Source: a virus
DNA length: 14,897 bases
Direction: 5' to 3' (one strand)
Virus genome (UHGV): UHGV-0249804
Positions 183 through 12,055 of the stretch are shown piece after piece. A model generated the notes under the pieces. That model did not search any database, was not told where the DNA came from, and saw only the letters and a list, made by a program, of their open reading frames with translations. Position numbers and translations under genes: made by a program. Position 1 is the first letter of the stretch; each line of letters opens with the position of its first letter.

Positions 183-1346
183 TTACACATCACTAGTACC
201 TTCCTTATTTTTTGACTGGGACAAATTTGGGACCGATGGGTTCAGGATCGAGTCTATTTGCCGTGCATGTTCGGTAAGGTGATTAGGTGCGAGGTGAGCA
301 TATCGACGAACCATTTCGATAGACTCCCAGCCTCCCATTTCCTGTAACACTGACAACGGGACTCCGGCTTGAACCAGCCAACTTGCCCAGGTGTGTCTCA
401 AGTCGTGAAATCTGAAATCATCAATACCTGCTCGTCTCAGCGCCGCTTTCCAGGCTGTGTTTGCGTCATACCGCATCTTCCTGACCGTTGGCGCTTTCGT
501 TCCGTCTGGTTTGGTACAGCTTTCCTTGTACACAAATACCCAACGGTGATGATTCCCGATTTGTTTTTTCAATACGCGACATGCAGTATCATTCAGCGCA
601 ACGCCAATTGCGCGGTTTGATTTACTCTCTTCCGGGTTTATCCATGCCACCCGGCGCTGCATATCTATTTGTTGCCATTCAAGGTTGATGATGTTCGAGC
701 GTCTTAAGCCTGTTGCCAGTGCAAATTCAACAACAGACTTTAATGGCTCCGGACATTCATCAATCAGCCTTTGTGCTTCATGGGGCTCCAGCCAGCGGAT
801 CCGTTTATTCTTTGGTTGAGGCACTTTAATAATTGGTGCCTTATCCAGCATTTTCCATTCACGCTCTGCGGCTCTTAGTAGGGCCTTTATAAATGAAAGA
901 TGCGTAGCCTTCGTTGCAACGGACGCTGGTTTTGGCGTGTATTCTGGAACAGGTTTCCCTTTTTTTCTGCATGCTTCTGCCCTGAGTTTCCAGTTTTCCT
1001 CATGACGCCGGTTCGTCATTTTCTGCATTGCTGAATAAATTTTTGATTCAGTAATGTCTCTTAGTTGCATTCCTGCGAAATGTTGAAGCCAGAATCCGAT
1101 CCGGCTTTTGTCATCGTCCAGTGATTTTTTATGTGCTTTCTCTTCAAGCCACCTGACACACGCTTCCTCGAACGTTATATCAGGTATTTCACCAAGTTTG
1201 CTGACCCGCCATGCTTCAGCCTTTAGCTTGTCATGGAGTTCTGTCGCCTGCCTTTTGTCCTTTGTTCCAAGAGACTGTTTAAATCTTTTACCGTTCGGCA
1301 ATGTGAAACTGGCGTACCATATTTCACCTCTGCGGAAGAGTGACAT
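183..1346 (-). CDS. int: tyrosine site-specific integrase, P22 Int-like
   Basis: 387-aa ORF, recognised from memory as near-identical in its N-terminus to P22 Int ([47 protein letters not shown]...). C-terminal [16 protein letters not shown]...RYAHL carries the catalytic R-H-R-Y signature. Ends 15 nt from the tRNA. Confidence 0.95.
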
Positions 1347-1573
1347 TTTCTTTCCTCTGTTATGCCATCACCCGCGCTCACCTGGACAGTATGCAGCGGA
1401 GACTGAAGAGCCGCAATGCAGGCTTGTCGTGTTGTGAGGTAAGGAGATTTATTCTTAGTGGGATCTTTGCGTGTTGCCTGAAGACGCCCTGTGCGTATCC
1501 AGTTAATGGCAGTCGGTCTGGATATCTTGAGAAAATGACAGGCCTCATCGAGTGTGAGGCTGTATGGCTCCAT
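1223..1573 (-). CDS. xis: excisionase, P22 Xis-like
   Basis: Internal Met of the 144-aa ORF gives a 116-aa protein [66 protein letters not shown]... resembling P22 Xis. Overlaps the int 5' end in another frame, and its ATG overlaps the upstream gene's stop (TAATG). Confidence 0.8.
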
Positions 1574-1878
1574 TATTTCACCTCTTGCTGTGACATTGTT
1601 GAAAAATGGATACCAGCTCGTTGCTGCCAGACGATCCAACCGAGAGTCATATCCCATGCCATGTATTCGTTATCGCCGTTTTTTGCTCTCCGACGATCTA
1701 CTAAGTCACCGAAACGCTTTTCCATGAATAATTCATAAGCTTCGCGTTCATCTGGTTCTACTTCCAGCGATAGGAGTGCGATTTCATAAGCACGGCGCTC
1801 AATATCGTCTCGCACGTCAAGGCTGCTGATACGCTCTTTAATTTCTTTAATCAGTTCTTTGTCGGTAAAAGTGATCAT
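1573..1878 (-). CDS. hypothetical phage early protein (101 aa, acidic)
   Basis: Clean ORF in the int/xis operon; stop and start overlap neighbours by 1 nt, implying translational coupling. No recognisable motif. Confidence 0.6.
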   Translation of the reverse strand: MITFTDKELIKEIKERISSLDVRDDIERRAYEIALLSLEVEPDEREAYELFMEKRFGDLVDRRRAKNGDNEYMAWDMTLGWIVWQQRAGIHFSTMSQQEVK

Positions 1879-2240
1879 TATGCTCCAGCCTCCGGTGCTT
1901 TTGGCATTATTGCCCAGTGAGTGATATTGACGTTTTCAAGGTCCCCGACCTGAAATGTCCACTGCCATTCTCCGGTTTCTTTTTGTCCCCAGGTGTACCA
2001 GAGAGAACGCCAGCCAATTAGCCAGCCTTCTCCGTTAGCATCGAATAACAAAACACTTTCATTTGCTGGTGGCAGTTCAGCTGACACTGGTATTACTTTG
2101 TTTTCCTGTGCTGCACATTTAGCTTCAAGCGCATCGAATTTACGCACCAGGTATTCAGCATCTGTTTCATTTACTTTCAGATCTCGCGGTACACATCTCC
2201 CACGAAGAAACCCTTCCATTTCGAAAACATTCATGCGCAT
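1878..2240 (-). CDS. hypothetical phage early protein (120 aa, Trp-rich C-terminus)
   Basis: ORF in the same minus-strand operon, coupled to flanking genes; function not recognisable from sequence. Confidence 0.6.
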   Translation of the reverse strand: MRMNVFEMEGFLRGRCVPRDLKVNETDAEYLVRKFDALEAKCAAQENKVIPVSAELPPANESVLLFDANGEGWLIGWRSLWYTWGQKETGEWQWTFQVGDLENVNITHWAIMPKAPEAGA

Positions 2241-2767
2241 TTGCGTAACTCCGATAACTCGTTAAAACGTTCCATAAACATCCCGTAGGCATGGCCCGGT
2301 GCCTGTGGAATCACTTTGAACATCTCTGTTGCCGGGATACCTTCCAGTACAGGCCAGAAAGAGCCATCATCAAGCCCGAGATCGCGGCGTTCGGTTGCCA
2401 GCATAATGAGATCGGCATATTTCACTGGCGTGCTCATAACAGGAGGTAACCCGTATTTCTCACGTATTACGGCGTCTATTTTTTCTTCCATCCGTTTATA
2501 GTCAGGAAGAAGTCGTTTCAGTGGTGCGGGGATGTCCTGGCAATATGCTTCTGTTGCATCATGCATTAAAGCTTCAAAAGCAAATTCCTGTGGCACCAGC
2601 TGGCTGCAAAGCACCGCATGTTGGGCGACACTGTAGAAGTGTGAAAGATGTCCTGCAAAGCGACAGATATTTGAAAGGGAAACCGCGATATCGTTAATAA
2701 CGATGTCGTCTTTATTTATCCTGTCATAATAAAAATGCTTCCCGGAAAAAGTTTTAATAAATGACAT
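2231..2767 (-). CDS. HD-domain metal-dependent phosphohydrolase-like protein
   Basis: H...HD signature (AGHLSHF...AQHAVL...ALMHDATEAY). Preferred start is the ATG at 2767 (MSFIKTF), preceded by GGAG with 6-nt spacing; the ORF-track start at 2794 is a GTG without an RBS. Confidence 0.65.
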   Translation of the reverse strand: MSFIKTFSGKHFYYDRINKDDIVINDIAVSLSNICRFAGHLSHFYSVAQHAVLCSQLVPQEFAFEALMHDATEAYCQDIPAPLKRLLPDYKRMEEKIDAVIREKYGLPPVMSTPVKYADLIMLATERRDLGLDDGSFWPVLEGIPATEMFKVIPQAPGHAYGMFMERFNELSELRKCA

Positions 2768-2991
2768 TTTGTTCTCCACGTATATGCGCTGCACCGCGCT
2801 GAATTCGGGTAAAAGGAAGCCCTCACCGTCCGGCGATTATTGAGTCAATTACATTTCCATAAATGCCCCCGTAGGGGCGGTTAGTTTCTCCACAAAACAG
2901 AGAAGAACACCTGCGGTGGCAGCCGCCCGGATGGATTGGGTTACCTCATGGCAAAAAGTCCCGGATTCAGTGTGATGATGACGAAGGCATT

Positions 2992-3186
2992 ATGATAGAC
3001 AGTTGTGTGGCTCGGTTGAGAAAGTATAAACCAGAGGAATATGAGCTAATCATAGCTCACTTTGTCATTGGTATCTCATTACGCACTATTGCCAAGAAGA
3101 GAAGATGTTCAGATGGCACAGTTAGGAAAAAATTGCAGACTGCCTTGGGGTTTGTTGAAGGATGTATTTGTTTGATTGAGTTCTAA
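2992..3186 (+). pseudogene. C-terminal remnant of a Q-like late antiterminator (sigma region-4-like HTH)
   Basis: 64-aa ORF with an HTH-like segment (ISLRTIAKKRRCSDGTVRKKLQTALGFV), sitting at the early/late junction just upstream of the lysis region. Only about 200 bp lie between it and the upstream gene, too little for a full Q. Family assignment is from memory of Q-protein C-termini. Confidence 0.45.
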
Positions 3187-3188
3187 AA

Positions 3189-3212
3189 AGAATGAGGCGT
3201 AAGCCTCATTCT
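3189..3212. terminator. bidirectional rho-independent terminator between convergent genes
   Basis: Perfect 10-bp stem AGAATGAGGC / GCCTCATTCT with GTAA loop, A-run on the left and T-rich tract on the right. Overlaps the stop codon of the minus-strand membrane-protein gene. Confidence 0.7.
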
Positions 3213-3775
3213 TTATCTTTAATTATAAGTTTCGATTTTTCATCATGCATTTTGTCTATCATAAAATACATACCTAATGCCGTTGTGTATATAATGTTGC
3301 ATATGGTACTTAAATAAATAAACAAAAGTAATGATTTCACTAGTGGATATGATGAAAGGTGTAATTCCTTGATGCTTGCGCTGGTTAGTTGAAGTGCTCC
3401 TCCAACGAAATACAGCGCGATGCTCATAAACGCTAAATAACCAAATAGATAAGTGAGGAATTTACGCCTTGTAAGTTTTTTACCTTTTAATACCGGAGGT
3501 ATGCCATGCATAACTTCATCCATACCATCCTTACTGAAGGTTGCAACTGCAGCCATAGATGCAATGTAAAAACCAGATAGTATTTGAAGTATCCCGTTTA
3601 CTAAAGACACAAGACTATCCTTCCCGAGAAGTGAGATGGTTTTCGGTAAGTAATAGATGGATAAAGTAATAATTGCAGCAGTGAAAATGGGTAAAACCCA
3701 GTCAAAAAATCGCTTCTCAGGATGCTTTATGCGTAGGTAGTCTATAGGTGTAAAAACCTTAGATAAAACATACAT
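3206..3775 (-). CDS. small polytopic membrane protein (190 aa, four predicted TM helices), second gene of the AT-rich cargo operon
   Basis: ATG at 3775 preceded by AAGGAGG with 6-nt spacing; the ORF-track start at 3868 would overlap the upstream gene. Four hydrophobic segments of about 21-29 residues (about residues 22-43, 55-80, 106-128, 145-173) and a charged C-terminal tail. Sampled 60-mers are about 32% GC. Confidence 0.75.
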   Translation of the reverse strand: MYVLSKVFTPIDYLRIKHPEKRFFDWVLPIFTAAIITLSIYYLPKTISLLGKDSLVSLVNGILQILSGFYIASMAAVATFSKDGMDEVMHGIPPVLKGKKLTRRKFLTYLFGYLAFMSIALYFVGGALQLTSASIKELHLSSYPLVKSLLLFIYLSTICNIIYTTALGMYFMIDKMHDEKSKLIIKDKE

Positions 3776-3807
3776 ATATGCCTCCTTTTGACAGGTTTTC
3801 CATGCCT

Positions 3808-4743
3808 TCACTTTAACATAAAGTTTTGCATTTTTGCGAGAAGTTCTTCGTGAAATGCTGTTTGGCAAACGGCAATTGTTGATGCCAACACTGCTTTTTC
3901 ACGTTGTGCCAATTGTGCTGTTGCGAGTTCCTGTAGGCTCATTTCTTTTCCGATGGAAACAAGATCTGATGAAACGCGTTTATTTTTGTCTTTATAAGAA
4001 ATTCTTAACATTGTATACTTTCTACCACGAAGTTTGTCATATGCAGACTTAATCGCCTTAATTGCACCCTCTCCGCGACGTATTTTTGTTGATAGCTTTA
4101 GTGTTTCTTCTTCAACCATTACTGTGCCATCATCATCTAAAGAGTTATCTTTAAAGCGACGAGTAGCAGTAAGTCCACATAAATAACCAGTGGATAGAGA
4201 TTGCTCAAGTGTTGTTGCAGCCAAAAAATCAATGTCGAAAATAGGTCTGCACTTAAGTTCTTTTTTCCCTCCTGAACGGATAAAGGAAAAATTATTTTCT
4301 CGCAGGAAATAAGTTAAAGCTTGGGCTAATAAACCTCTGGTAATGCCCGGAACTTCTTCTAAAATTGCCTCATAACAATCTTGGAATGATGAGTCGCTCG
4401 GTCTTTTTTTGATAAGCACATGAGCAGAGTACCCCATACCTTCATCATTTTGCTTTTTCTCAATTCTGGTTTCACCAGTTTTTATGTTGGAAAAGGCGGG
4501 ATCAGAAGCATCTTTATTTATATATTGAAAAAGCAATTTCAGGTAATTTTCATCGTCTTTTATGGATAGCAATCTTATGACAGAACGTCCTTTGTTTAAT
4601 TCGTAAACAGCTTCTCCTTTGTTATAGCGATTTTTTAAAACAGGAATACAGTTTACTAAAGGCATGTCAGGTGCGTCATTAGGATACTTCTTTAAAGTAA
4701 CCTGGCATTTGATCATGAAACGTTCATTATCTCCCAAGAGCAT
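3808..4743 (-). CDS. hypothetical 311-aa soluble protein, first gene of the AT-rich cargo operon; possible nucleotidyltransferase-like motif
   Basis: Long ORF with an AAGGAA RBS 6 nt before the ATG, in AT-rich DNA (sampled 60-mers about 25-37% GC). No family recognised; residues 158-172 (GGKKELKCRPIFDID) fit a minimal hGG-x10-DhD pattern. Confidence 0.8.
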   Translation of the reverse strand: MLLGDNERFMIKCQVTLKKYPNDAPDMPLVNCIPVLKNRYNKGEAVYELNKGRSVIRLLSIKDDENYLKLLFQYINKDASDPAFSNIKTGETRIEKKQNDEGMGYSAHVLIKKRPSDSSFQDCYEAILEEVPGITRGLLAQALTYFLRENNFSFIRSGGKKELKCRPIFDIDFLAATTLEQSLSTGYLCGLTATRRFKDNSLDDDGTVMVEEETLKLSTKIRRGEGAIKAIKSAYDKLRGRKYTMLRISYKDKNKRVSSDLVSIGKEMSLQELATAQLAQREKAVLASTIAVCQTAFHEELLAKMQNFMLK

Positions 4744-4822
4744 ATCTGTTCCTTATACGAGCACTAATACTGATTGCTGTTTTTAGTTCAGCAGAACCAA
4801 AGGTTAACTGATTGTGCTTGAT

Positions 4823-4852
4823 AGTATATATTTTTCACTAACGCGTACGCAA
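4823..4852 (-). promoter_or_regulatory. putative promoter of the AT-rich two-gene operon
   Basis: On the minus strand, TATACT (-10) with TTGCGT about 18 bp upstream, roughly 80 nt before the ATG at 4743. Hexamer match only. Confidence 0.3.
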
Positions 4853-4898
4853 AAAGTATTGTATCGTGTTAAGAGTGGTTACTTCGCCACACAACTTA

Positions 4899-4922
4899 AA
4901 CCCGCCGCTGAGCGGTTTTTTT
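4899..4922 (+). terminator. candidate rho-independent terminator (short GC hairpin plus T7 run)
   Basis: CCGC-TGA-GCGG hairpin followed by TTTTTTT, in the intergenic region upstream of the small ORF and methyltransferase. Confidence 0.4.
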
Positions 4923-5044
4923 GTACCTGTAAACTTGGTGCAGTACAGTAAACACGCTGGTGGTCGTGAATACTGACTTTTTATCTTGCTGGCTTTTTAG
5001 ACAAGAGTTATTGGTATGTCATGTTAACCAGAAGGAAAAAAGAC

Positions 5045-5239
5045 ATGCTAAAACAGCTAGATATGACAGAAACGGCGAAAGTTGTTTTTAATGAATTAAG
5101 CGTCGAACCGGCAACAGTCGGGGAGATAGCACAAAACACATACCTTTCACGCGAACGCTGTCAGTTAATACTGACCCAGCTGGTTATGGCGGGGCTGGCA
5201 GATTACCAGTTCGGCTGTTACAGACGCCTTCAGCAATGA
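5045..5239 (+). CDS. small protein (64-72 aa), possible winged-helix DNA-binding regulator
   Basis: ORF 5021-5239. The ATG at 5045 has an AAGGA RBS 9 nt upstream; the 5021 ATG has none. The C-terminal part (TVGEIAQNTYLSRERCQLILTQLVMAGLADYQF) resembles small PapI/FaeA-type winged-helix proteins by pattern only. Confidence 0.45.
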   Translation: MLKQLDMTETAKVVFNELSVEPATVGEIAQNTYLSRERCQLILTQLVMAGLADYQFGCYRRLQQ

Positions 5240-5388: not shown

Positions 5389-6441
5389 ATGAAAAATACT
5401 GTAAAAATAAACAGTGTTGATTTAATCAACGCTGATTGCCTGCATTTTATTCAGTCCCTGCCTGATGATTCCATTGACCTGATAGTTACCGATCCGCCGT
5501 ACTTCAAAGTGAAGCCCAACGGCTGGGACAATCAGTGGGAAGGGGACGAAGATTACCTGAAGTGGCTGGACCACTGTCTGGCCCAGTTCTGGCGGGTACT
5601 GAAACCATCCGGAAGCCTTTACCTGTTCTGTGGACATCGCCTGGCATCTGATATCGAGATCATGATGCGTGAACGTTTCAACGTGCTTAACCATATCATC
5701 TGGGCGAAGCCGTCTGGACGTTGGAATGGGTGTAATAAAGAAAGTCTGCGCGCATATTTTCCCGCCACAGAGCGTGTTCTGTTTGCTGAACATTACCAGG
5801 GGCCATATCGCGGCAAAAGTGACGGCTATGCGGCAAAAGAAAGGGAACTCAAACAGCACATAATGGCACCGCTGATTTCGTATTTCAGGGATGCTCGTGC
5901 CGAACTGGGTATAACGGCAAAACAGATTGCCGAAGCCACAGGTAAGAAAAATATGGTTTCCCACTGGTTTGGTAGCAGTCAGTGGCAGTTGCCGAACGAG
6001 GCTGACTACCGGAAGTTGCAGGCACTGTTTTCTCGTATAGCGGCAGAGAAGTTTCAGGAACAACAACTGGAACAACCACACCACCAGCTGGTGGCATCTT
6101 ATGATTCACTGAATCGCAAATATTCTGAATTGCTGGATGAGTTTAAATCTCTCCGGCGCTATTTCTCCGTATCAGTCTCCGTGCCTTATACCGATGTCTG
6201 GATGCATAAACCCGTTCAGTTCTACCCGGGTAAACATCCGTGTGAGAAACCGGCGGATATGCTCAGGCAAATAATCAATGCCAGTAGTCGACCAGGCGAT
6301 CTGGTTGCTGATTTCTTTATGGGATCCGGTTCCACAATAAAAGCAGCAATGGCGCTGGGGCGTCGGGCGTTAGGTGTTGAGCTTGAGTCAGAGCGGTTTA
6401 ACCAGACGGTGAAAGAGGTAAGTGAACTGGTGGGGAAATAG
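5389..6441 (+). CDS. DNA N6-adenine/N4-cytosine methyltransferase, beta class (DPPY ... FxGxG order)
   Basis: 350-aa ORF with motif IV DLIVTDPPY near the N-terminus and the AdoMet-binding motif I DFFMGSGST near the C-terminus, typical of N6_N4 amino-methyltransferases. A roughly 100-aa insert (about residues 150-260) is rich in helix-forming residues. GC is about 50%, unlike the AT-rich operon. Confidence 0.9.
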   Translation: MKNTVKINSVDLINADCLHFIQSLPDDSIDLIVTDPPYFKVKPNGWDNQWEGDEDYLKWLDHCLAQFWRVLKPSGSLYLFCGHRLASDIEIMMRERFNVLNHIIWAKPSGRWNGCNKESLRAYFPATERVLFAEHYQGPYRGKSDGYAAKERELKQHIMAPLISYFRDARAELGITAKQIAEATGKKNMVSHWFGSSQWQLPNEADYRKLQALFSRIAAEKFQEQQLEQPHHQLVASYDSLNRKYSELLDEFKSLRRYFSVSVSVPYTDVWMHKPVQFYPGKHPCEKPADMLRQIINASSRPGDLVADFFMGSGSTIKAAMALGRRALGVELESERFNQTVKEVSELVGK

Positions 6442-6857: not shown

Positions 6858-7334
6858 ATGCAGGTACTAAATCCCCAGCGTAAAGCTTTCCTTGATATGG
6901 TGGCCTGGTCAGAAGGAACGGATAACGGGCGACAACCGACACGTAACCACGGTTATGACGTTATTGTCGGTGGAGAACTCTTCACTGATTACTCCGATCA
7001 CCCTCGCAAACTTGTCACGCTAAACCCGAAACTCAAATCAACAGCTGCAGGCCGTTATCAACTTCTTTCACGCTGGTGGGATGCTTACCGTAAACAGCTT
7101 GGCCTGAAAGATTTTTCTCCAGAAAGCCAGGACGCTGTAGCTCTGCAGCAGATTAAAGAGCGTGGTGCTTTACCGATGATTGACCGCGGCAATATTCGTC
7201 AGGCAATCGACCGTTGCAGCAATATCTGGGCTTCACTGCCGGGCGCTGGTTATGGTCAGTATGAACATAAAATTGGTGACCTGATTGCAAGGTTTAAAGA
7301 GGTTGGCGGGGTGGTAAATGAAGTTGAGCTATAA
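6858..7334 (+). CDS. R: endolysin, lambda R-type lytic transglycosylase
   Basis: 158 aa, recognised from memory as near-identical to lambda R over most of its length (...NQRKAFLDM.AWSEGTDNGRQ.TRNHGYDVIVGGELFTDYSDHPRKLVTLNPKLKST.AGRYQLLSRWWDAYRKQLGLKDFSP...). Confidence 0.93.
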   Translation: MQVLNPQRKAFLDMVAWSEGTDNGRQPTRNHGYDVIVGGELFTDYSDHPRKLVTLNPKLKSTAAGRYQLLSRWWDAYRKQLGLKDFSPESQDAVALQQIKERGALPMIDRGNIRQAIDRCSNIWASLPGAGYGQYEHKIGDLIARFKEVGGVVNEVEL

Positions 7335-7710
7335 GCTGGTTATTTCTGCTTTCCTCCTGACTTTATTCGGTTCTCTCGTCTGGTCAGCTAACCACTACCA
7401 CAGCAAATACCAGCGCGAAAAGAAACGCGCTGATGAGGCTGTACAAAATGCCGAATCAGCAACTGCCATTACCAATAACGTCCTGCAATCAATGCAAATC
7501 ATCAATACAGTTCTGGAGGCTAACCAGCATGCAAAACAGCAGATCGCACTGGAGTCACAGAGAACCCAGGAAGATATCAAAGTGGCTGTTGCGAATGATG
7601 ATTGCGCTTCACGTCCTGTGCCTGCTGCCGCTGCTGACCGGTTGCGGAAGTACGCGGACAGTTTACGTACAAGTTCCGGTGATACCGCTACCGGCAAGTC
7701 TGACCGCTGA
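7318..7710 (+). CDS. Rz: i-spanin Rz (inner-membrane spanin subunit)
   Basis: Follows R with overlap. N-terminal TM segment (LVISAFLLTLFGSLVWSANHY, compare lambda Rz ...CLSWAVNHY) then a coiled-coil-like periplasmic region. 130 aa is at the short end for Rz. Confidence 0.75.
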   Translation: MKLSYKLVISAFLLTLFGSLVWSANHYHSKYQREKKRADEAVQNAESATAITNNVLQSMQIINTVLEANQHAKQQIALESQRTQEDIKVAVANDDCASRPVPAAAADRLRKYADSLRTSSGDTATGKSDR

Positions 7711-7870
7711 AACCCCGCAACCAGCCATTCCCGATCCGCTGACCTATGGAGGCAGTCTGGATTTGAATGTGAGTCTGTTGTCAGCACTGACTAACTGTAA
7801 TCGGGATAAAACTTCTATTCGTAAAATAGAAGCAGAGAGTGTCAGTAAACGGATAAACCTTAATAAGTAG
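7595..7870 (+). CDS. Rz1: o-spanin Rz1 (outer-membrane lipoprotein), +1 frame, overlapping and extending beyond Rz
   Basis: In the +1 frame relative to Rz: MMIALHVLCLLPLLTGC with lipobox LTGC, followed by a Pro-rich mature region. An alternative start at 7529 has a GGAGG RBS 9 nt upstream but would give a 39-aa leader. The ORF ends 160 nt after the Rz stop. Confidence 0.6.
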   Translation: MMIALHVLCLLPLLTGCGSTRTVYVQVPVIPLPASLTAETPQPAIPDPLTYGGSLDLNVSLLSALTNCNRDKTSIRKIEAESVSKRINLNK

Positions 7871-8040
7871 TGCCATAGCAGCAGCCATGATATCCCAGAG
7901 AGCTCAAGGTTGCGCGTACCAGTCGCTCATTAATAGTGTAATTACACATTGTTTACGGTTGAGGGGAGCAGGGATATGCTCTAAGAAAATATCCACGTTA
8001 CTGGAGCGATCATTGAGGGAGTGTGGTATGTAGTATTTTC

Positions 8041-8070
8041 AGGCGCCTAGAAGGCGCCTATTTATTATTC
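8041..8070. terminator. hairpin terminator after the lysis cassette
   Basis: AGGCGCCT-AGA-AGGCGCCT (each 8-mer is self-complementary, giving an 8-bp stem) followed by ATTTATTATT. Overlaps the stop codon of the minus-strand 83-aa gene. Confidence 0.55.
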
Positions 8071-8316
8071 GTGACCAAAAGATAATAACTTTTCTTTGAA
8101 TTGCTGTAGGCGTTCAATTTCTTCTGGTGTATTTTCAGGAGAAATATCATTAGGGGCTATCGCCTCAACGACTTCTTGAAAAATAGTATTAACATCCATC
8201 CCAGAAGTGTTTGAAATATATTTCATGATGATTTTAATCATTACGCGATTTGCAGAGGTCTCAAGCTTTAATTCATCAATTTCTTTTTCTAATTCGGTAA
8301 TTATTTCTTGATTCAT
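8065..8316 (-). CDS. small acidic hypothetical protein (83 aa) in an AT-rich island
   Basis: Real gene is the C-terminal 83 codons of the 249-aa ORF (start MNQEIITELEKEIDELK at 8316); the rest of that ORF is antisense to the GC-rich plus-strand gene. No signal peptide or TM segment, so not a Bor-like lipoprotein. Confidence 0.6.
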   Translation of the reverse strand: MNQEIITELEKEIDELKLETSANRVMIKIIMKYISNTSGMDVNTIFQEVVEAIAPNDISPENTPEEIERLQQFKEKLLSFGHE

Positions 8317-8355
8317 GTAATTGCCCTTTTCAAAATCGTACAAGAGATAGAAATT

Positions 8356-8961
8356 ATGCCACCACGAACTCCTAAAGCCTGCCGGGTCCGAGGGTGCGGC
8401 AAAACGGACAGTAAAACCACCGCCACGGCGACGCAGCAGCGTAACGTGGTTGCCAGCACCCTTCGTACGACCGCAATCAGCGAAGCGGCGTATGCCGTCA
8501 TCCGATTGCCTGCGCCAACAACTTCCGCGGTGATGCAGAATGCCACAGTGGGGCAGGCAACAACACCTGCGCAGAGCACCGGTTGGCCTTCCGTCACGCA
8601 TCCGGCACTGAACAATGCACCGGCGGTGAAAAACACGGTTGACCTGCCGACGTGGGAAGAACTGACTGACATTCGCGACACACTGAATACGGCAATTGAT
8701 AAGGAGTTGTCCCGTACAACCAGTGATGCGCTGTTTCTGGCGCTGCGCCGGGTGAAAGCAGATCTGAATGCGGATATCAACACGCGCCTTGAGCAGTCTG
8801 CACGGATCATTCATCGCACACCGGATGAGGTTTTACCCGCGCTGGTGCTGGCGGCGACCTGGTTTGATAACGCGGCGCGTGACGCGGACATTATCCGGCG
8901 TAATGCCATTACGCATCCCGGCTTTGTGCCGGTGATCCCTCTGAAGGTGCCAGTGCAATGA
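8356..8961 (+). CDS. tail/baseplate-associated protein, probably a 5'-truncated remnant of the gene preceding Mu P (N-like)
   Basis: GC-rich ORF directly upstream of, and coupled (ATGA overlap) to, the gpP/D-like gene. Its reading frame runs back into the AT-rich island without an upstream module, and the first ATG in GC-rich DNA is 8356. Homology to Mu N is by position only. Confidence 0.45.
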   Translation: MPPRTPKACRVRGCGKTDSKTTATATQQRNVVASTLRTTAISEAAYAVIRLPAPTTSAVMQNATVGQATTPAQSTGWPSVTHPALNNAPAVKNTVDLPTWEELTDIRDTLNTAIDKELSRTTSDALFLALRRVKADLNADINTRLEQSARIIHRTPDEVLPALVLAATWFDNAARDADIIRRNAITHPGFVPVIPLKVPVQ

Positions 8962-10037
8962 ACGATAACGTCACGCTACGGGTAAATGGCCGGGAGTGGA
9001 ATGGCTGGACATCGGTGCGCATCGGTGCCGGTATTGAACGGCTGGCGCGGGATTTCAGCGTGGAGATCACCCGCCAGTGGCCGGGAGATGAGGGTATCAC
9101 CACGCTTCAGCCGCGCATTAAAAATGGTTCAAAAGTGGAAGTGCTGATTGGTGATGAGCTGGTGATCACCGGCTGGGTGGAGGCGACCCCCGTTCGTTAC
9201 GATGCCCGTTCGGTCAGCACCGGTATTGCCGGACGTAGTCTGACTGCTGACCTGATTGACTGTGCAGCCGAACCGACACAGTTTAACGGACGATCGCTGG
9301 TACAGATTGCGCAGGCGCTTGCTGCGCCTTTCGGCATTGAGGTGGTGAACAGCGATGCGCCGTCGGGTGTTATTCCTGATGTCCAGCCTGATCACGGTGA
9401 AACGGTGATCGAGGTGATCAACAAAATACTCGGTCAGCAGCAGGCGCTGGCTTATGACGACCCGCACGGCAGGCTGGTGATTGGCGGTATTGGCTCAACG
9501 CGGGCACATACCGCGCTGGTACTTGGGGAAAACATCCTTTCCTGTGATACGGAGAAGAGTATCCGGGAGCGGTTTTCAGTTTACCAGGTGGCGGGGCAGC
9601 GTGCCGGAAACGACGATGATTTCGGTGAGGCCACCACCACCGCGCTGCGGGCCCGCACAGAGGACGCATTTATTGCCCGTTACCGTCCGATGTATATCAG
9701 GCAGACAGGGCAGGCCACGGGGGCAGGCTGTATTGCGCGTGCTGACTTTGAAGCCCGACAACGGGCGGCGCGGACGGATGAAACCACCTATGTGGTGCAG
9801 GGCTGGCGACAGGGTAACGGTACGCTGTGGCAGCCCAACCAGCGGGTGATTGTCTTCGATCCGGTCTGTGGTTTCGACAATACCGAACTGCTTGTCTCGG
9901 AAGTCACGTTTACTCAGGACCAGAACGGCACCCTGACGGAAATCCGTGTCGGCCCACCTGATGCTTATCTGCCTGAACCAGAAGCCCCCGGCGCGCGGAA
10001 AAAGAAAAAAGCCAGAGTACAGGAGGACCCGTTCTGA
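8958..10037 (+). CDS. tail protein, Mu P / P2 gpD-like
   Basis: 359-aa ORF in conserved position upstream of the baseplate V-like gene, coupled to both neighbours. Family assignment rests on gene order and size in Mu-like baseplate modules. Confidence 0.7.
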   Translation: MNDNVTLRVNGREWNGWTSVRIGAGIERLARDFSVEITRQWPGDEGITTLQPRIKNGSKVEVLIGDELVITGWVEATPVRYDARSVSTGIAGRSLTADLIDCAAEPTQFNGRSLVQIAQALAAPFGIEVVNSDAPSGVIPDVQPDHGETVIEVINKILGQQQALAYDDPHGRLVIGGIGSTRAHTALVLGENILSCDTEKSIRERFSVYQVAGQRAGNDDDFGEATTTALRARTEDAFIARYRPMYIRQTGQATGAGCIARADFEARQRAARTDETTYVVQGWRQGNGTLWQPNQRVIVFDPVCGFDNTELLVSEVTFTQDQNGTLTEIRVGPPDAYLPEPEAPGARKKKKARVQEDPF

Positions 10038-10585
10038 TGAGGACGATTGAAGCCATGCAGCGACAACTCCTCGGCCTGATTGGGCGGGCCGTGGTGAAAA
10101 GCATCAGTGCCGCCACGAAATGTCAGACCGTGGATGTGTCCCTGATTGCCGGTGAACCCAAAGCCGGGGTTGAACATCTTGAACCCTACGGTTTTACCGC
10201 AAGGGCAAACAGCGGTGCGGAAGCGGTGGTGTTGTTTCCGGATGGCGACCGTTCTCATGCGGTGGTTGTTACGGTGTCGGACCGGCGCTACCGCCTGAAA
10301 GGGCTGCAGACGGGTGAGGTGGCTGTCTATGACGATCAGGGGCAGTCCGTGACGCTGACCCGGGAGGGGATCGTAGTGGACGGTGCAGGTAAAACGATCA
10401 CGTTTCGCAATGCACCTGAAGCACGTTTTGAAATGGACCTTGAAGTGACCGGACAGGTGAAAGACCTGTGCGACTCCGGCGGCACCACCATGTCAGCGAT
10501 GCGGCTTGCCTATAACGGGCATTGTCACAGAGAGAACGGTCAGGGCAGTAACACCGACAAACCTGATAAAGCGATGGAGGCATGA
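10037..10585 (+). CDS. baseplate assembly protein V-like (Mu gp45-type spike)
   Basis: 182 aa; C-terminal NGHCHRENG resembles the His-containing apex motif of gpV-type spikes. Start overlaps the upstream stop (TGATG). Confidence 0.8.
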   Translation: MRTIEAMQRQLLGLIGRAVVKSISAATKCQTVDVSLIAGEPKAGVEHLEPYGFTARANSGAEAVVLFPDGDRSHAVVVTVSDRRYRLKGLQTGEVAVYDDQGQSVTLTREGIVVDGAGKTITFRNAPEARFEMDLEVTGQVKDLCDSGGTTMSAMRLAYNGHCHRENGQGSNTDKPDKAMEA

Positions 10586-11010
10586 TGGAACTGTGGCTGA
10601 CGGTGAACGGTAAACGCACCTGCGCCAGCGCACCGCTGGATCCGCTGACCCGCGCCGTGGTGATTTCCCTGTTTACCTGGCGGCGGGCGGAGCCTGATGA
10701 CAACGCCGACGTCCCGATGGGATGGTGGGGGGATACCTGGCCTGCGGTACAGAATGACCGTTACGGCTCCCGACTGTGGCTGCTTCAGCGCAGCAAACTG
10801 ACCAATCAGCTGGTGCAGACGGTAAGGGGGTATATCCGTGAATGCCTGCAATGGATGATTGATGACGGCGTGGTGTCCCGTATTGATCTGGATATCCGCC
10901 GCACCGGGATTAATGAACTGGGTAACAGTATCACCCTCTGGCGTCGTGACGGACCGGTAATGATTTCTTTTGATGATCTGTGGAGTGCGATAACGCATGG
11001 CGGACAGTGA
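10582..11010 (+). CDS. baseplate protein, Mu gp46 family (gp25-like wedge)
   Basis: 142 aa, Trp-rich (GWWGDTWPAV), in the conserved position between the V-like and J-like genes; start overlaps the upstream stop. Confidence 0.8.
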   Translation: MMELWLTVNGKRTCASAPLDPLTRAVVISLFTWRRAEPDDNADVPMGWWGDTWPAVQNDRYGSRLWLLQRSKLTNQLVQTVRGYIRECLQWMIDDGVVSRIDLDIRRTGINELGNSITLWRRDGPVMISFDDLWSAITHGGQ

Positions 11011-12055
11011 ATTTCAGCGCCCGACGCTGGCAGAAAATATCAGTATGCTCCGTAACGATTTATTCGCCAGGCTGGACGTCAGCGACACGCTCCGGCGCAT
11101 GGATGAAGACGTGCGGGCAAAGGTGTATGCGGCGGCGCTGCATACGGTTTACGGGTACATCGATTATCTGGCAATGAATATGCTGCCTGACCTGTGCGAT
11201 GAGTCCTGGCTGGCGCGACATGCTGCGATGAAACGGTGTCCGCGCAAGGGGGCCACGGCTGCCAGCGGGTATATGCGCTGGGAAGGTGTCAGCGATGGCC
11301 TGAAGGTGACTGCCGGGAGTGTTATTCAGCGCGATGACCTGGTTCAGTACACGGCAACTGCCGATGCAACCAGCTCCGGTGGTGTCCTGCGCGTGCCGAT
11401 CGCCTGCTCAAGTGCAGGCGCGGTCGGTAACGCTGACGACGGTACGTCATTAATCCTGGTCACGCCGGTGAATGGTCTGCCGTCTTCCGGCGTGGCAGAT
11501 ACCCTGACAGGTGGATTTGATACTGAAGAGCTGGAAACGTGGCGCGCCCGCGTCATTGAGCGGTATTACTGGACACCTCAGGGCGGGGCTGACGGGGACT
11601 ATGTCGTCTGGGCTAAAGAAGTGCCCGGCATTACCCGCGCATGGACATACCGTCACTGGATGGGAACGGGAACTGTCGGTGTGATGATTGCCAGCAGTGA
11701 CCTGATTAATCCCATTCCGGAAGAATCAACGGAAACGGCAGCAAGACAACATATCGGGCCACTGGCCCCGGTGGCAGGCTCTGATTTGTATGTATTCAGG
11801 CCGGTGGCACATACGGTGGATTTTCATATCCGCGTGACGCCGGACACACCAGAAATACGGGCTGCCATTACCGCGGAGTTGCGTTCGTTCCTGCTGCGTG
11901 ATGGTTATCCGCAGGGAGAGCTGAAGGTGTCGCGTATCAGTGAAGCGATTTCCGGTGCGAACGGGGAATACAGCCATCAGTTGCTTGCACCGGCAGACAA
12001 TATCTCCATTGCGAAAAACGAACTGGCGGTTCTGGGGACGATTTCATGGACGTGA
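10997..12055 (+). CDS. baseplate J-like protein (Mu gp47 family)
   Basis: 352 aa, in the conserved position before the DUF2313-like and tail-fibre genes; overlaps both neighbours by a few codons. Confidence 0.85.

Follow-up and report, generated by a model that had tools for sequence, protein, structure and literature searches.

A possible, very divergent RexAB-type exclusion system of the PDC-M53 family in a decayed Escherichia coli prophage

The virus genome UHGV-0249804, analysed here as a stretch of 14,897 nt (the window), carries a pair of minus-strand genes, called A and B below, which lie between the remnant of a Q antiterminator gene and a probable late promoter. We propose, with a probability of about 0.6, that A-B is a very divergent prophage exclusion or abortive-infection system of the RexAB type, corresponding to the candidate that PADLOC lists as PDC-M53. 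Five converging lines point the same way: the RexA-like fold predicted for A, its obligate four-transmembrane (four-TM) partner B, the position of the pair in the immunity region in part of the family, its mobility between prophage hotspots, and the embedding signal behind the PADLOC entry. The resemblance of A-B to Rex is one of fold, architecture and genomic position. A defence role, suggested by an initial annotation made from the sequence alone, is the best reading of the pair. RexAB was the first abortive-infection system to be found, yet what sets it off and how it kills have still to be settled.

A and B form a tight operon under purifying selection

The features of the module are as follows:

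3808 to 4743, minus strand: gene A, 311 aa, ATG start (open reading frame and homologues)
3206 to 3775, minus strand: gene B, 189 aa, ATG at 3775-3773 (open reading frame and homologues)
4750 to 4754, minus strand: ribosome-binding site (RBS) of gene A, AAGGA, 6 nt before the ATG (read from the sequence)
3781 to 3787, minus strand: RBS of gene B, AAGGAGG, 5 nt before the ATG (read from the sequence)
3187 to 3214, no strand: hairpin of 12 pairs with a GC core and T-runs on both sides (terminator scan and sequence)

The two genes constitute a tight operon, in which a spacer of 32 nt contains the AAGGAGG of B; the two co-directional minus-strand genes, the gap and the motif are just as the initial annotation had described them. 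Its account of the products, a 311-aa soluble protein and a 190-aa four-TM protein, holds for A and for the membrane character of B, the length of B being 189 aa. A 220-aa reading of B from a TTG at 3868 was dropped in favour of the ATG at 3775, because the latter has a consensus RBS and agrees with the RefSeq call and with the homologues. The hairpin overlaps the stop codon of B and starts one base past the stop codon of Q; it could therefore terminate both convergent genes and is a probable bidirectional terminator between Q and the A-B operon. A hairpin terminator had indeed been noted there, with a 10-bp stem at 3189-3212, which proves to be longer by two pairs. The G+C content is 36.9% for A, 34.7% for B and 36.3% for the island 3187-4900, versus 50.5% for the rest of the window. 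The contrast reported from hand counts (25-37% versus 50-68%) is thus real, its size not being as first given.

When A and B were compared with their Salmonella copies, the proportion of non-synonymous differences (pN) was 0.09-0.12 versus 0.78-0.86, i.e. saturation, for the synonymous ones (pS), which indicates that both are real genes under strong purifying selection. Both are intact despite the loss of the repressor, replication and head genes from the prophage around them.

A large family with close linkage of A and B

Both proteins match PADLOC models of the same candidate system: A matches PDC-M53A (PDLC04696, 1e-17) and four further M53A models, and B matches PDC-M53B (PDLC04699, 1.6e-39) over positions 2-186 of 188. 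The matching genes are adjacent and co-directional, as the definition of PDC-M53 requires, and distant relatives match these models too. In PHROGs, A and B match families 16499 and 8257, both of unknown function. PDC-M53 is one of 145 phage defence candidates (cassette CAS_00171) derived by guilt-by-embedding in BREX, DISARM and type I restriction-modification (RM) loci; it is a bioinformatic label to which no mechanism is attached, and the word Rex has 0 occurrences in the main text of the source (bioRxiv 10.1101/2024.01.29.577857, Payne et al.). The pair is therefore already catalogued and neither undescribed nor without a named family, as had been supposed; its Rex-like nature is unstated in the searchable literature, where the only other mention of PDC-M53 is in the legend of a table of PADLOC categories in a Salmonella genome comparison.

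The full pair is present in 4 of 5,426 complete E. coli genomes, and a Megablast search of deposited phage genomes found it in none. A word-indexed search for A gave 39 close clusters, which come from Enterobacterales and Pasteurellaceae, and an exhaustive profile search returned 753 representatives at 50% identity (423 at E <= 1e-10), from Enterobacterales, Pasteurellaceae and metagenomes. Among the matches listed, nearly all are 300-340 aa long and aligned over their full length.

Linkage was assessed on a set of 38 loci with an A homologue, in 37 of which the DNA continues past A (a narrow peptide-pattern scan of genome contigs gave only 3 loci). A B homologue was found directly 3' of A and on the same strand in all 37, with spacers from -10 to +35 nt; the two genes thus co-occur and move together. 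Six distant A representatives are likewise each followed by an ORF (open reading frame) of 185-227 aa, and the three of these ORFs that were tested with a hidden Markov model (HMM) all belong to the B family (E 1e-46 to 1e-52). Conservation is uneven: divergent copies are 27-40% identical for A versus 39-63% for B (e.g. 36% versus 52%, or 27% versus 39%), and PADLOC covers B with a single HMM and needs five to cover A. A variable A next to a conserved B fits a split between sensor and effector.

Predicted structures of the two proteins

Protein A is soluble, with no hydrophobic segment (maximum KD19 value 1.1), and basic, with an isoelectric point (pI) of 9.1. Its predicted fold is RexA/RdgC-like, with two domains: seven strands and a helix at the N-terminus, a central alpha/beta region and a C-terminal helix. 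Judged by eye, this order of elements is compatible with the split globular domain and the dimerisation domain of RexA. The best fold matches of the model are DNA-binding dimers, of the non-enzymatic DNA clamp type, which, together with the pI, gives indirect support to the idea that A may be a DNA-binding dimer. Against BFVD, Foldseek returned four uncharacterised phage proteins only. Searches of PDB sequences with two A profiles (25 and 89 sequences) and with the B profile gave 0 matches at E <= 10, Pfam and NCBIfam scans of both proteins gave nothing, and none of the searches of A against Pfam, NCBIfam and PDB sequences revealed a nuclease or any other enzyme family. Six polar residues, R8, R93, E101, H108, E129 and D203, are near-invariant among 89 diverse members of the A family. 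We propose that A is the sensor and DNA-binding component.

Protein B has hydrophobic segments at about 25-45, 61-82, 106-128 and 147-172. They align over 17 homologues, and the transmembrane core that they form is strongly conserved. The positive-inside rule predicts that both termini are cytoplasmic (N-in/C-in). A single-sequence AlphaFold2 model displays four long helices at low confidence (a predicted local distance difference test score, pLDDT, of 52.7) and was too poor for a fold search. B is proposed to be a four-TM inner-membrane effector.

How far the resemblance to Rex goes

Taken in a broad sense, Rex-like systems share a set of features with A-B: the two-domain RexA/RdgC fold, here predicted for A; a small four-TM partner with both termini in the cytoplasm, again as predicted; and a conserved, tightly linked operon in which the gene for the soluble protein comes first. 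The Rex-type architecture pointed out by the initial annotation is thereby retained in fold, membrane partner and gene order, and so is its remark that sequence similarity is absent.

This absence counts against the proposal. A has no match at E <= 1 to the Pfam (PF15969) or PADLOC models of RexA and B none to those of RexB (PF15968 and PADLOC), whereas lambda RexA, used as a positive control, matches its own models at 1e-97 and 9e-110 and lambda RexB matches as well. None of 89 A-family members matches Pfam RexA or RdgC at E <= 0.01. With hhalign, the probability of homology is 0.9% for the 89 A-family sequences versus 25 RexA sequences and 0.4% for the B family versus the RexB family; the A family versus lambda RexA alone gives no signal. 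With no sequence-level homology by Pfam, PADLOC or hhalign, A-B falls outside the RexA/RexB sequence families sensu stricto. Other points go in the same direction. The Foldseek search of the A model against PDB yielded no significant match, and the six near-invariant polar residues of A might belong to an active site, one that is not known in RexA. B has a conserved cytoplasmic loop and an N-terminal helix, neither of which exists in RexB, and it is 45 residues longer than lambda RexB (A is 32 residues longer than lambda RexA; PDB 8TWQ). In the window, the pair is not beside a repressor gene, the repressor having been deleted, and the promoter-like region announced upstream of A comes down to a weak candidate (see below), a standard consensus scan of the minus strand having found nothing there. 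Lastly, no functional study of the family came up in the searchable literature, which was queried for PDC-M53 as well as for the RefSeq accessions and for defence of the Rex/RdgC type.

Three kinds of prophage position

In 20 of the 38 loci, among them the window and those of Salmonella, Citrobacter and other relatives, the pair follows Q and is convergent with it. In 15 others (Pasteurella multocida, Haemophilus, Proteus), it lies directly 3' of a CI-type repressor gene with helix-turn-helix and Peptidase_S24 domains, co-directional with it and at a distance of 22-307 nt from repressor to A: this is the same order as in lambda cI-rexA-rexB. A third kind of site is found at one locus in a P2-like phage, where the pair (3106-4714 in its own coordinates; 27% identity for A and 39% for B) sits between ogr and the replication gene gpA. 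In a Proteus mirabilis prophage, the region 7172-11263 contains, in this order, the CI repressor, A, B, a 67-aa ORF and a true RdgC (PF04381), so that a canonical RdgC and a protein predicted to have the RexA/RdgC fold are near neighbours in a single early-left region.

An exchangeable slot between Q and a probable late promoter

Two features were located upstream of A:

4804 to 4923, plus strand: probable late promoter (pR'-like), conserved leader and tR'-like hairpin with a T-run (scan and conservation)
4823 to 4852, minus strand: weak candidate sigma-70 promoter for A-B, 8/12 (relaxed hexamer scan)

The plus-strand region starts with a promoter-like site at 4804-4832 (TTAACT-17-TATATT) and ends with a hairpin followed by a T-run at 4904-4923. 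The segment 4835-4900, i.e. 65 bases just 5' of A, is kept in about 860 E. coli genomes, and it is also present in lambdoid phages that have no A-B, including mEp460, SfII and Stx2a-converting phages. The leader contains an invariant palindrome, TGCGTACGCG; no Rfam family matches 4804-4923. This region is probably a Q-dependent late promoter with its Q-utilisation site and tR' terminator, and it is the backbone boundary of a cargo slot: A-B stands between Q and the promoter that Q targets, antisense to both. Most of the region upstream of A is thus taken up by a promoter and a terminator of the opposite strand. The candidate promoter of A-B consists of a -35 box TTGCGT (4852-4847), an 18-nt spacer and a -10 box TATACT (4828-4823); its -35 box falls within the TGCGTACGCG element, which is invariant in all Q-type loci in an alignment of ten upstream regions. 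We infer that this 8/12 site may serve as the promoter of the operon.

In phage mEp460_4F5, the same slot is occupied by an unrelated antisense ORF of 308 aa (1516-2442, minus strand, own coordinates). Its product has no Pfam or PADLOC match and no similarity to A; possibly this is a further gene for cargo or defence, likewise uncharacterised. The presence of a different cargo there indicates that the slot is exchangeable. The low-GC island, the swap in mEp460 and the three different prophage positions support the view, already taken in the initial annotation, that A-B is horizontally mobile cargo. More generally, the case illustrates that lambdoid prophages have an exchangeable site for antisense cargo in the interval from Q to the late promoter.

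The prophage remnant that carries the module

Apart from the module and the late promoter region, the window contains:

93 to 168: tRNA-Thr, the sole match of the Rfam and tRNA scans
183 to 1346, minus strand: integrase
Between the integrase and the Q remnant: yfdT/yfdR-like genes
2944 to 3186 (ORF 2992-3186), plus strand: Q antiterminator remnant, part of the flanking backbone, outside the module
5021 to 5239, plus strand: small 72-aa ORF with a weak Csa3-like (winged-helix) match only
5389 to 6441, plus strand: N6/N4 DNA methyltransferase, 350 aa (PADLOC MTase_II, 7e-151)
3' of the methyltransferase: holin and lysozyme, then Mu-like baseplate genes

Overall, the window represents an E. coli prophage in decay, integrated beside tRNA-Thr; within the A-B module the Rfam and tRNA scans found no match. 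An intact version of the prophage is present in E. coli MLI104K1, beside proA and tRNA-Thr. By comparison with it, the window is 7,534 bp short: the repressor, a cro-like gene, the replication genes and codons 1-34 of Q are gone. The truncation of Q, which had been spotted from the sequence, is thus explained by a deletion of its first 34 codons; what is left (ORF 2992-3186) matches positions 52-113 of 118 of Phage_antitermQ (PF06530, 2e-19). This first deletion has its junction at 2941-2943. A second breakpoint, at 8405, falls within an HNH endonuclease gene just beyond the lysis genes and connects this region with the Mu-like baseplate genes; head genes have also been lost from the prophage surrounding A-B. 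The exact twice-deleted arrangement is absent from the complete E. coli genomes of the collection.

Two other observations concern this backbone. The methyltransferase gene (5389-6441), located between the late promoter and the holin gene, has no adjacent restriction gene and for this reason looks like an orphan phage methylase. A 249-aa ORF on the minus strand (8065-8814) spans the 8405 junction and has no Pfam match; the rearrangement may have produced it as a chimeric or spurious frame.

A proposed mechanism and its alternatives

Systems of the RexAB type, taken broadly, are further characterised by the need of both genes for superinfection exclusion, by loss of membrane potential or integrity on activation, and by a soluble component that is a dimer and binds double-stranded DNA non-specifically. 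By analogy with lambda RexAB and RexABpp, A-B would be expressed in the lysogen: in the window through a weak promoter of its own that runs antisense to the late operon, and in other hosts as part of the repressor transcript. A would form a DNA-clamping dimer and sense a phage-specific DNA or DNA-protein intermediate; once activated, it would engage B, and B would impair membrane potential or integrity. Growth of the infected cell would then stop and the phage burst would be aborted. The steps of this scheme are drawn from lambda RexAB and from RexABpp of Pseudomonas putida (PMC12894663), and it is only from there that we infer DNA binding, dimerisation, A-B contact, depolarisation and a phage-resistance phenotype.

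A related possibility, to which we give distinctly less weight, is that lambda Rex would be a side-branch of a separate, larger lineage, represented by A-B, in which a clamp with the RdgC/RexA fold is paired with a membrane effector. An exchange of roles within the pair seems unlikely. A would then be the toxic or enzymatic effector, acting for instance on DNA through its E, H and D residues, and B would do no more than anchor or sequester it at the membrane, from which infection would free it, as in Butters gp30/gp31, a Rex-like system reported to work in this way (PMC12894663). The near-invariant charged residues of A would suit a catalytic or ligand site, and in published data the DNA binding of lambda RexA is uncorrelated with exclusion. 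However, B is the better-conserved partner, and strong conservation of its transmembrane core would sooner be expected if B were an effector than if it served as a passive anchor; A, for its part, has no detected enzyme family and its top fold matches are non-enzymatic DNA clamps.

Readings which set defence aside fare less well. Regulation of the prophage life cycle, with A biasing the switch between lysogeny and lysis and B as its antagonist, as described for lambda RexA and RexB in induction, is quite improbable. Lambda RexA is reported to favour the lytic state independently of RexB (PMC11077077; bioRxiv 10.1101/2021.04.19.439022), and 15 loci do have the pair beside the repressor; but in 20, including the window, it lies well away from the immunity region and runs antisense to the late operon, the remnant keeps it after the loss of the repressor, cro and replication genes, so that no switch is left, and relatives are embedded in chromosomal BREX, DISARM or RM loci. 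There is hardly more than a slight chance that the pair serves as an addiction module or as a moron outside defence: it could consist of a membrane toxin and a soluble antitoxin which together stabilise the prophage, or contribute to host fitness in a way that has nothing to do with phages. Toxin-antitoxin and stress modules, too, include small membrane proteins paired with a soluble one, and the pair persists in a decaying prophage; against this, no toxin-antitoxin, transporter or virulence family is matched in Pfam, NCBIfam or PHROGs, and phage defence is favoured by the RexA-like fold, by the embedding signal behind the PADLOC entry and by the consistent siting of the pair in hotspots for phage immunity genes and morons. 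Least probable is a Kiwa-like system, where a membrane sensor and a DNA-binding effector would block phage replication and late transcription. The pairing of a four-TM protein with a soluble, probably DNA-binding protein of about 300 aa invites the comparison, which the initial annotation had also drawn. It finds no echo in the models: PADLOC gave only PDC-M53 models at E <= 1 and no KwaA or KwaB match, Pfam DUF4868 is not matched, and the gene order is opposite.

Relation to known Rex-like systems

If PDC-M53 works as a Rex-type system, the class, in which only five systems had been described by a 2026 count (PMC12894663), would be enlarged considerably, by a family with 753 clusters at 50% identity. 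The strongly conserved membrane partner and the several prophage contexts would then open the way to comparisons and genetics in E. coli and Salmonella, and a PADLOC candidate that is now only a label in censuses of defence systems would receive a functional reading. The size of the family and the unsettled mechanism of Rex would make A-B worth experimental testing.

RdgC (PF04381; PDB 2OWL), whose fold A is predicted to share, is encoded by a stand-alone gene with no membrane partner, unlike A. Membership of A in this family was rejected, none of the 89 members of the A family matching PF04381; since a true RdgC is found near A-B in the Proteus prophage, A and RdgC are distinct. Closer parallels come from the Rex systems themselves. 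Lambda rex belongs to the immunity region, whereas in the window the pair is inserted in antisense orientation after Q, ahead of the late promoter; RexB and RexBpp are reported to be four-TM proteins with both termini inside, and the same is predicted for B. In the P. putida prophage P1, RexApp (the pair RexABpp is PP_5643/PP_5644) is recognisable as RexA by HHpred with 98% probability (PMC12894663), unlike the A family, in which hhalign does not recognise RexA; the comparison with RexABpp is by description, not by sequence. Likewise by description, A-B can be likened to the Rex-like pairs of actinobacteriophages (Sbash gp30/gp31, CarolAnn gp44/gp43 and Butters gp30/gp31). There, in other hosts, a prophage-encoded soluble RexA-like protein of 337-372 aa is combined with a membrane protein, heterotypic phages are excluded, and adjacency to the repressor and orientation vary from one pair to another.

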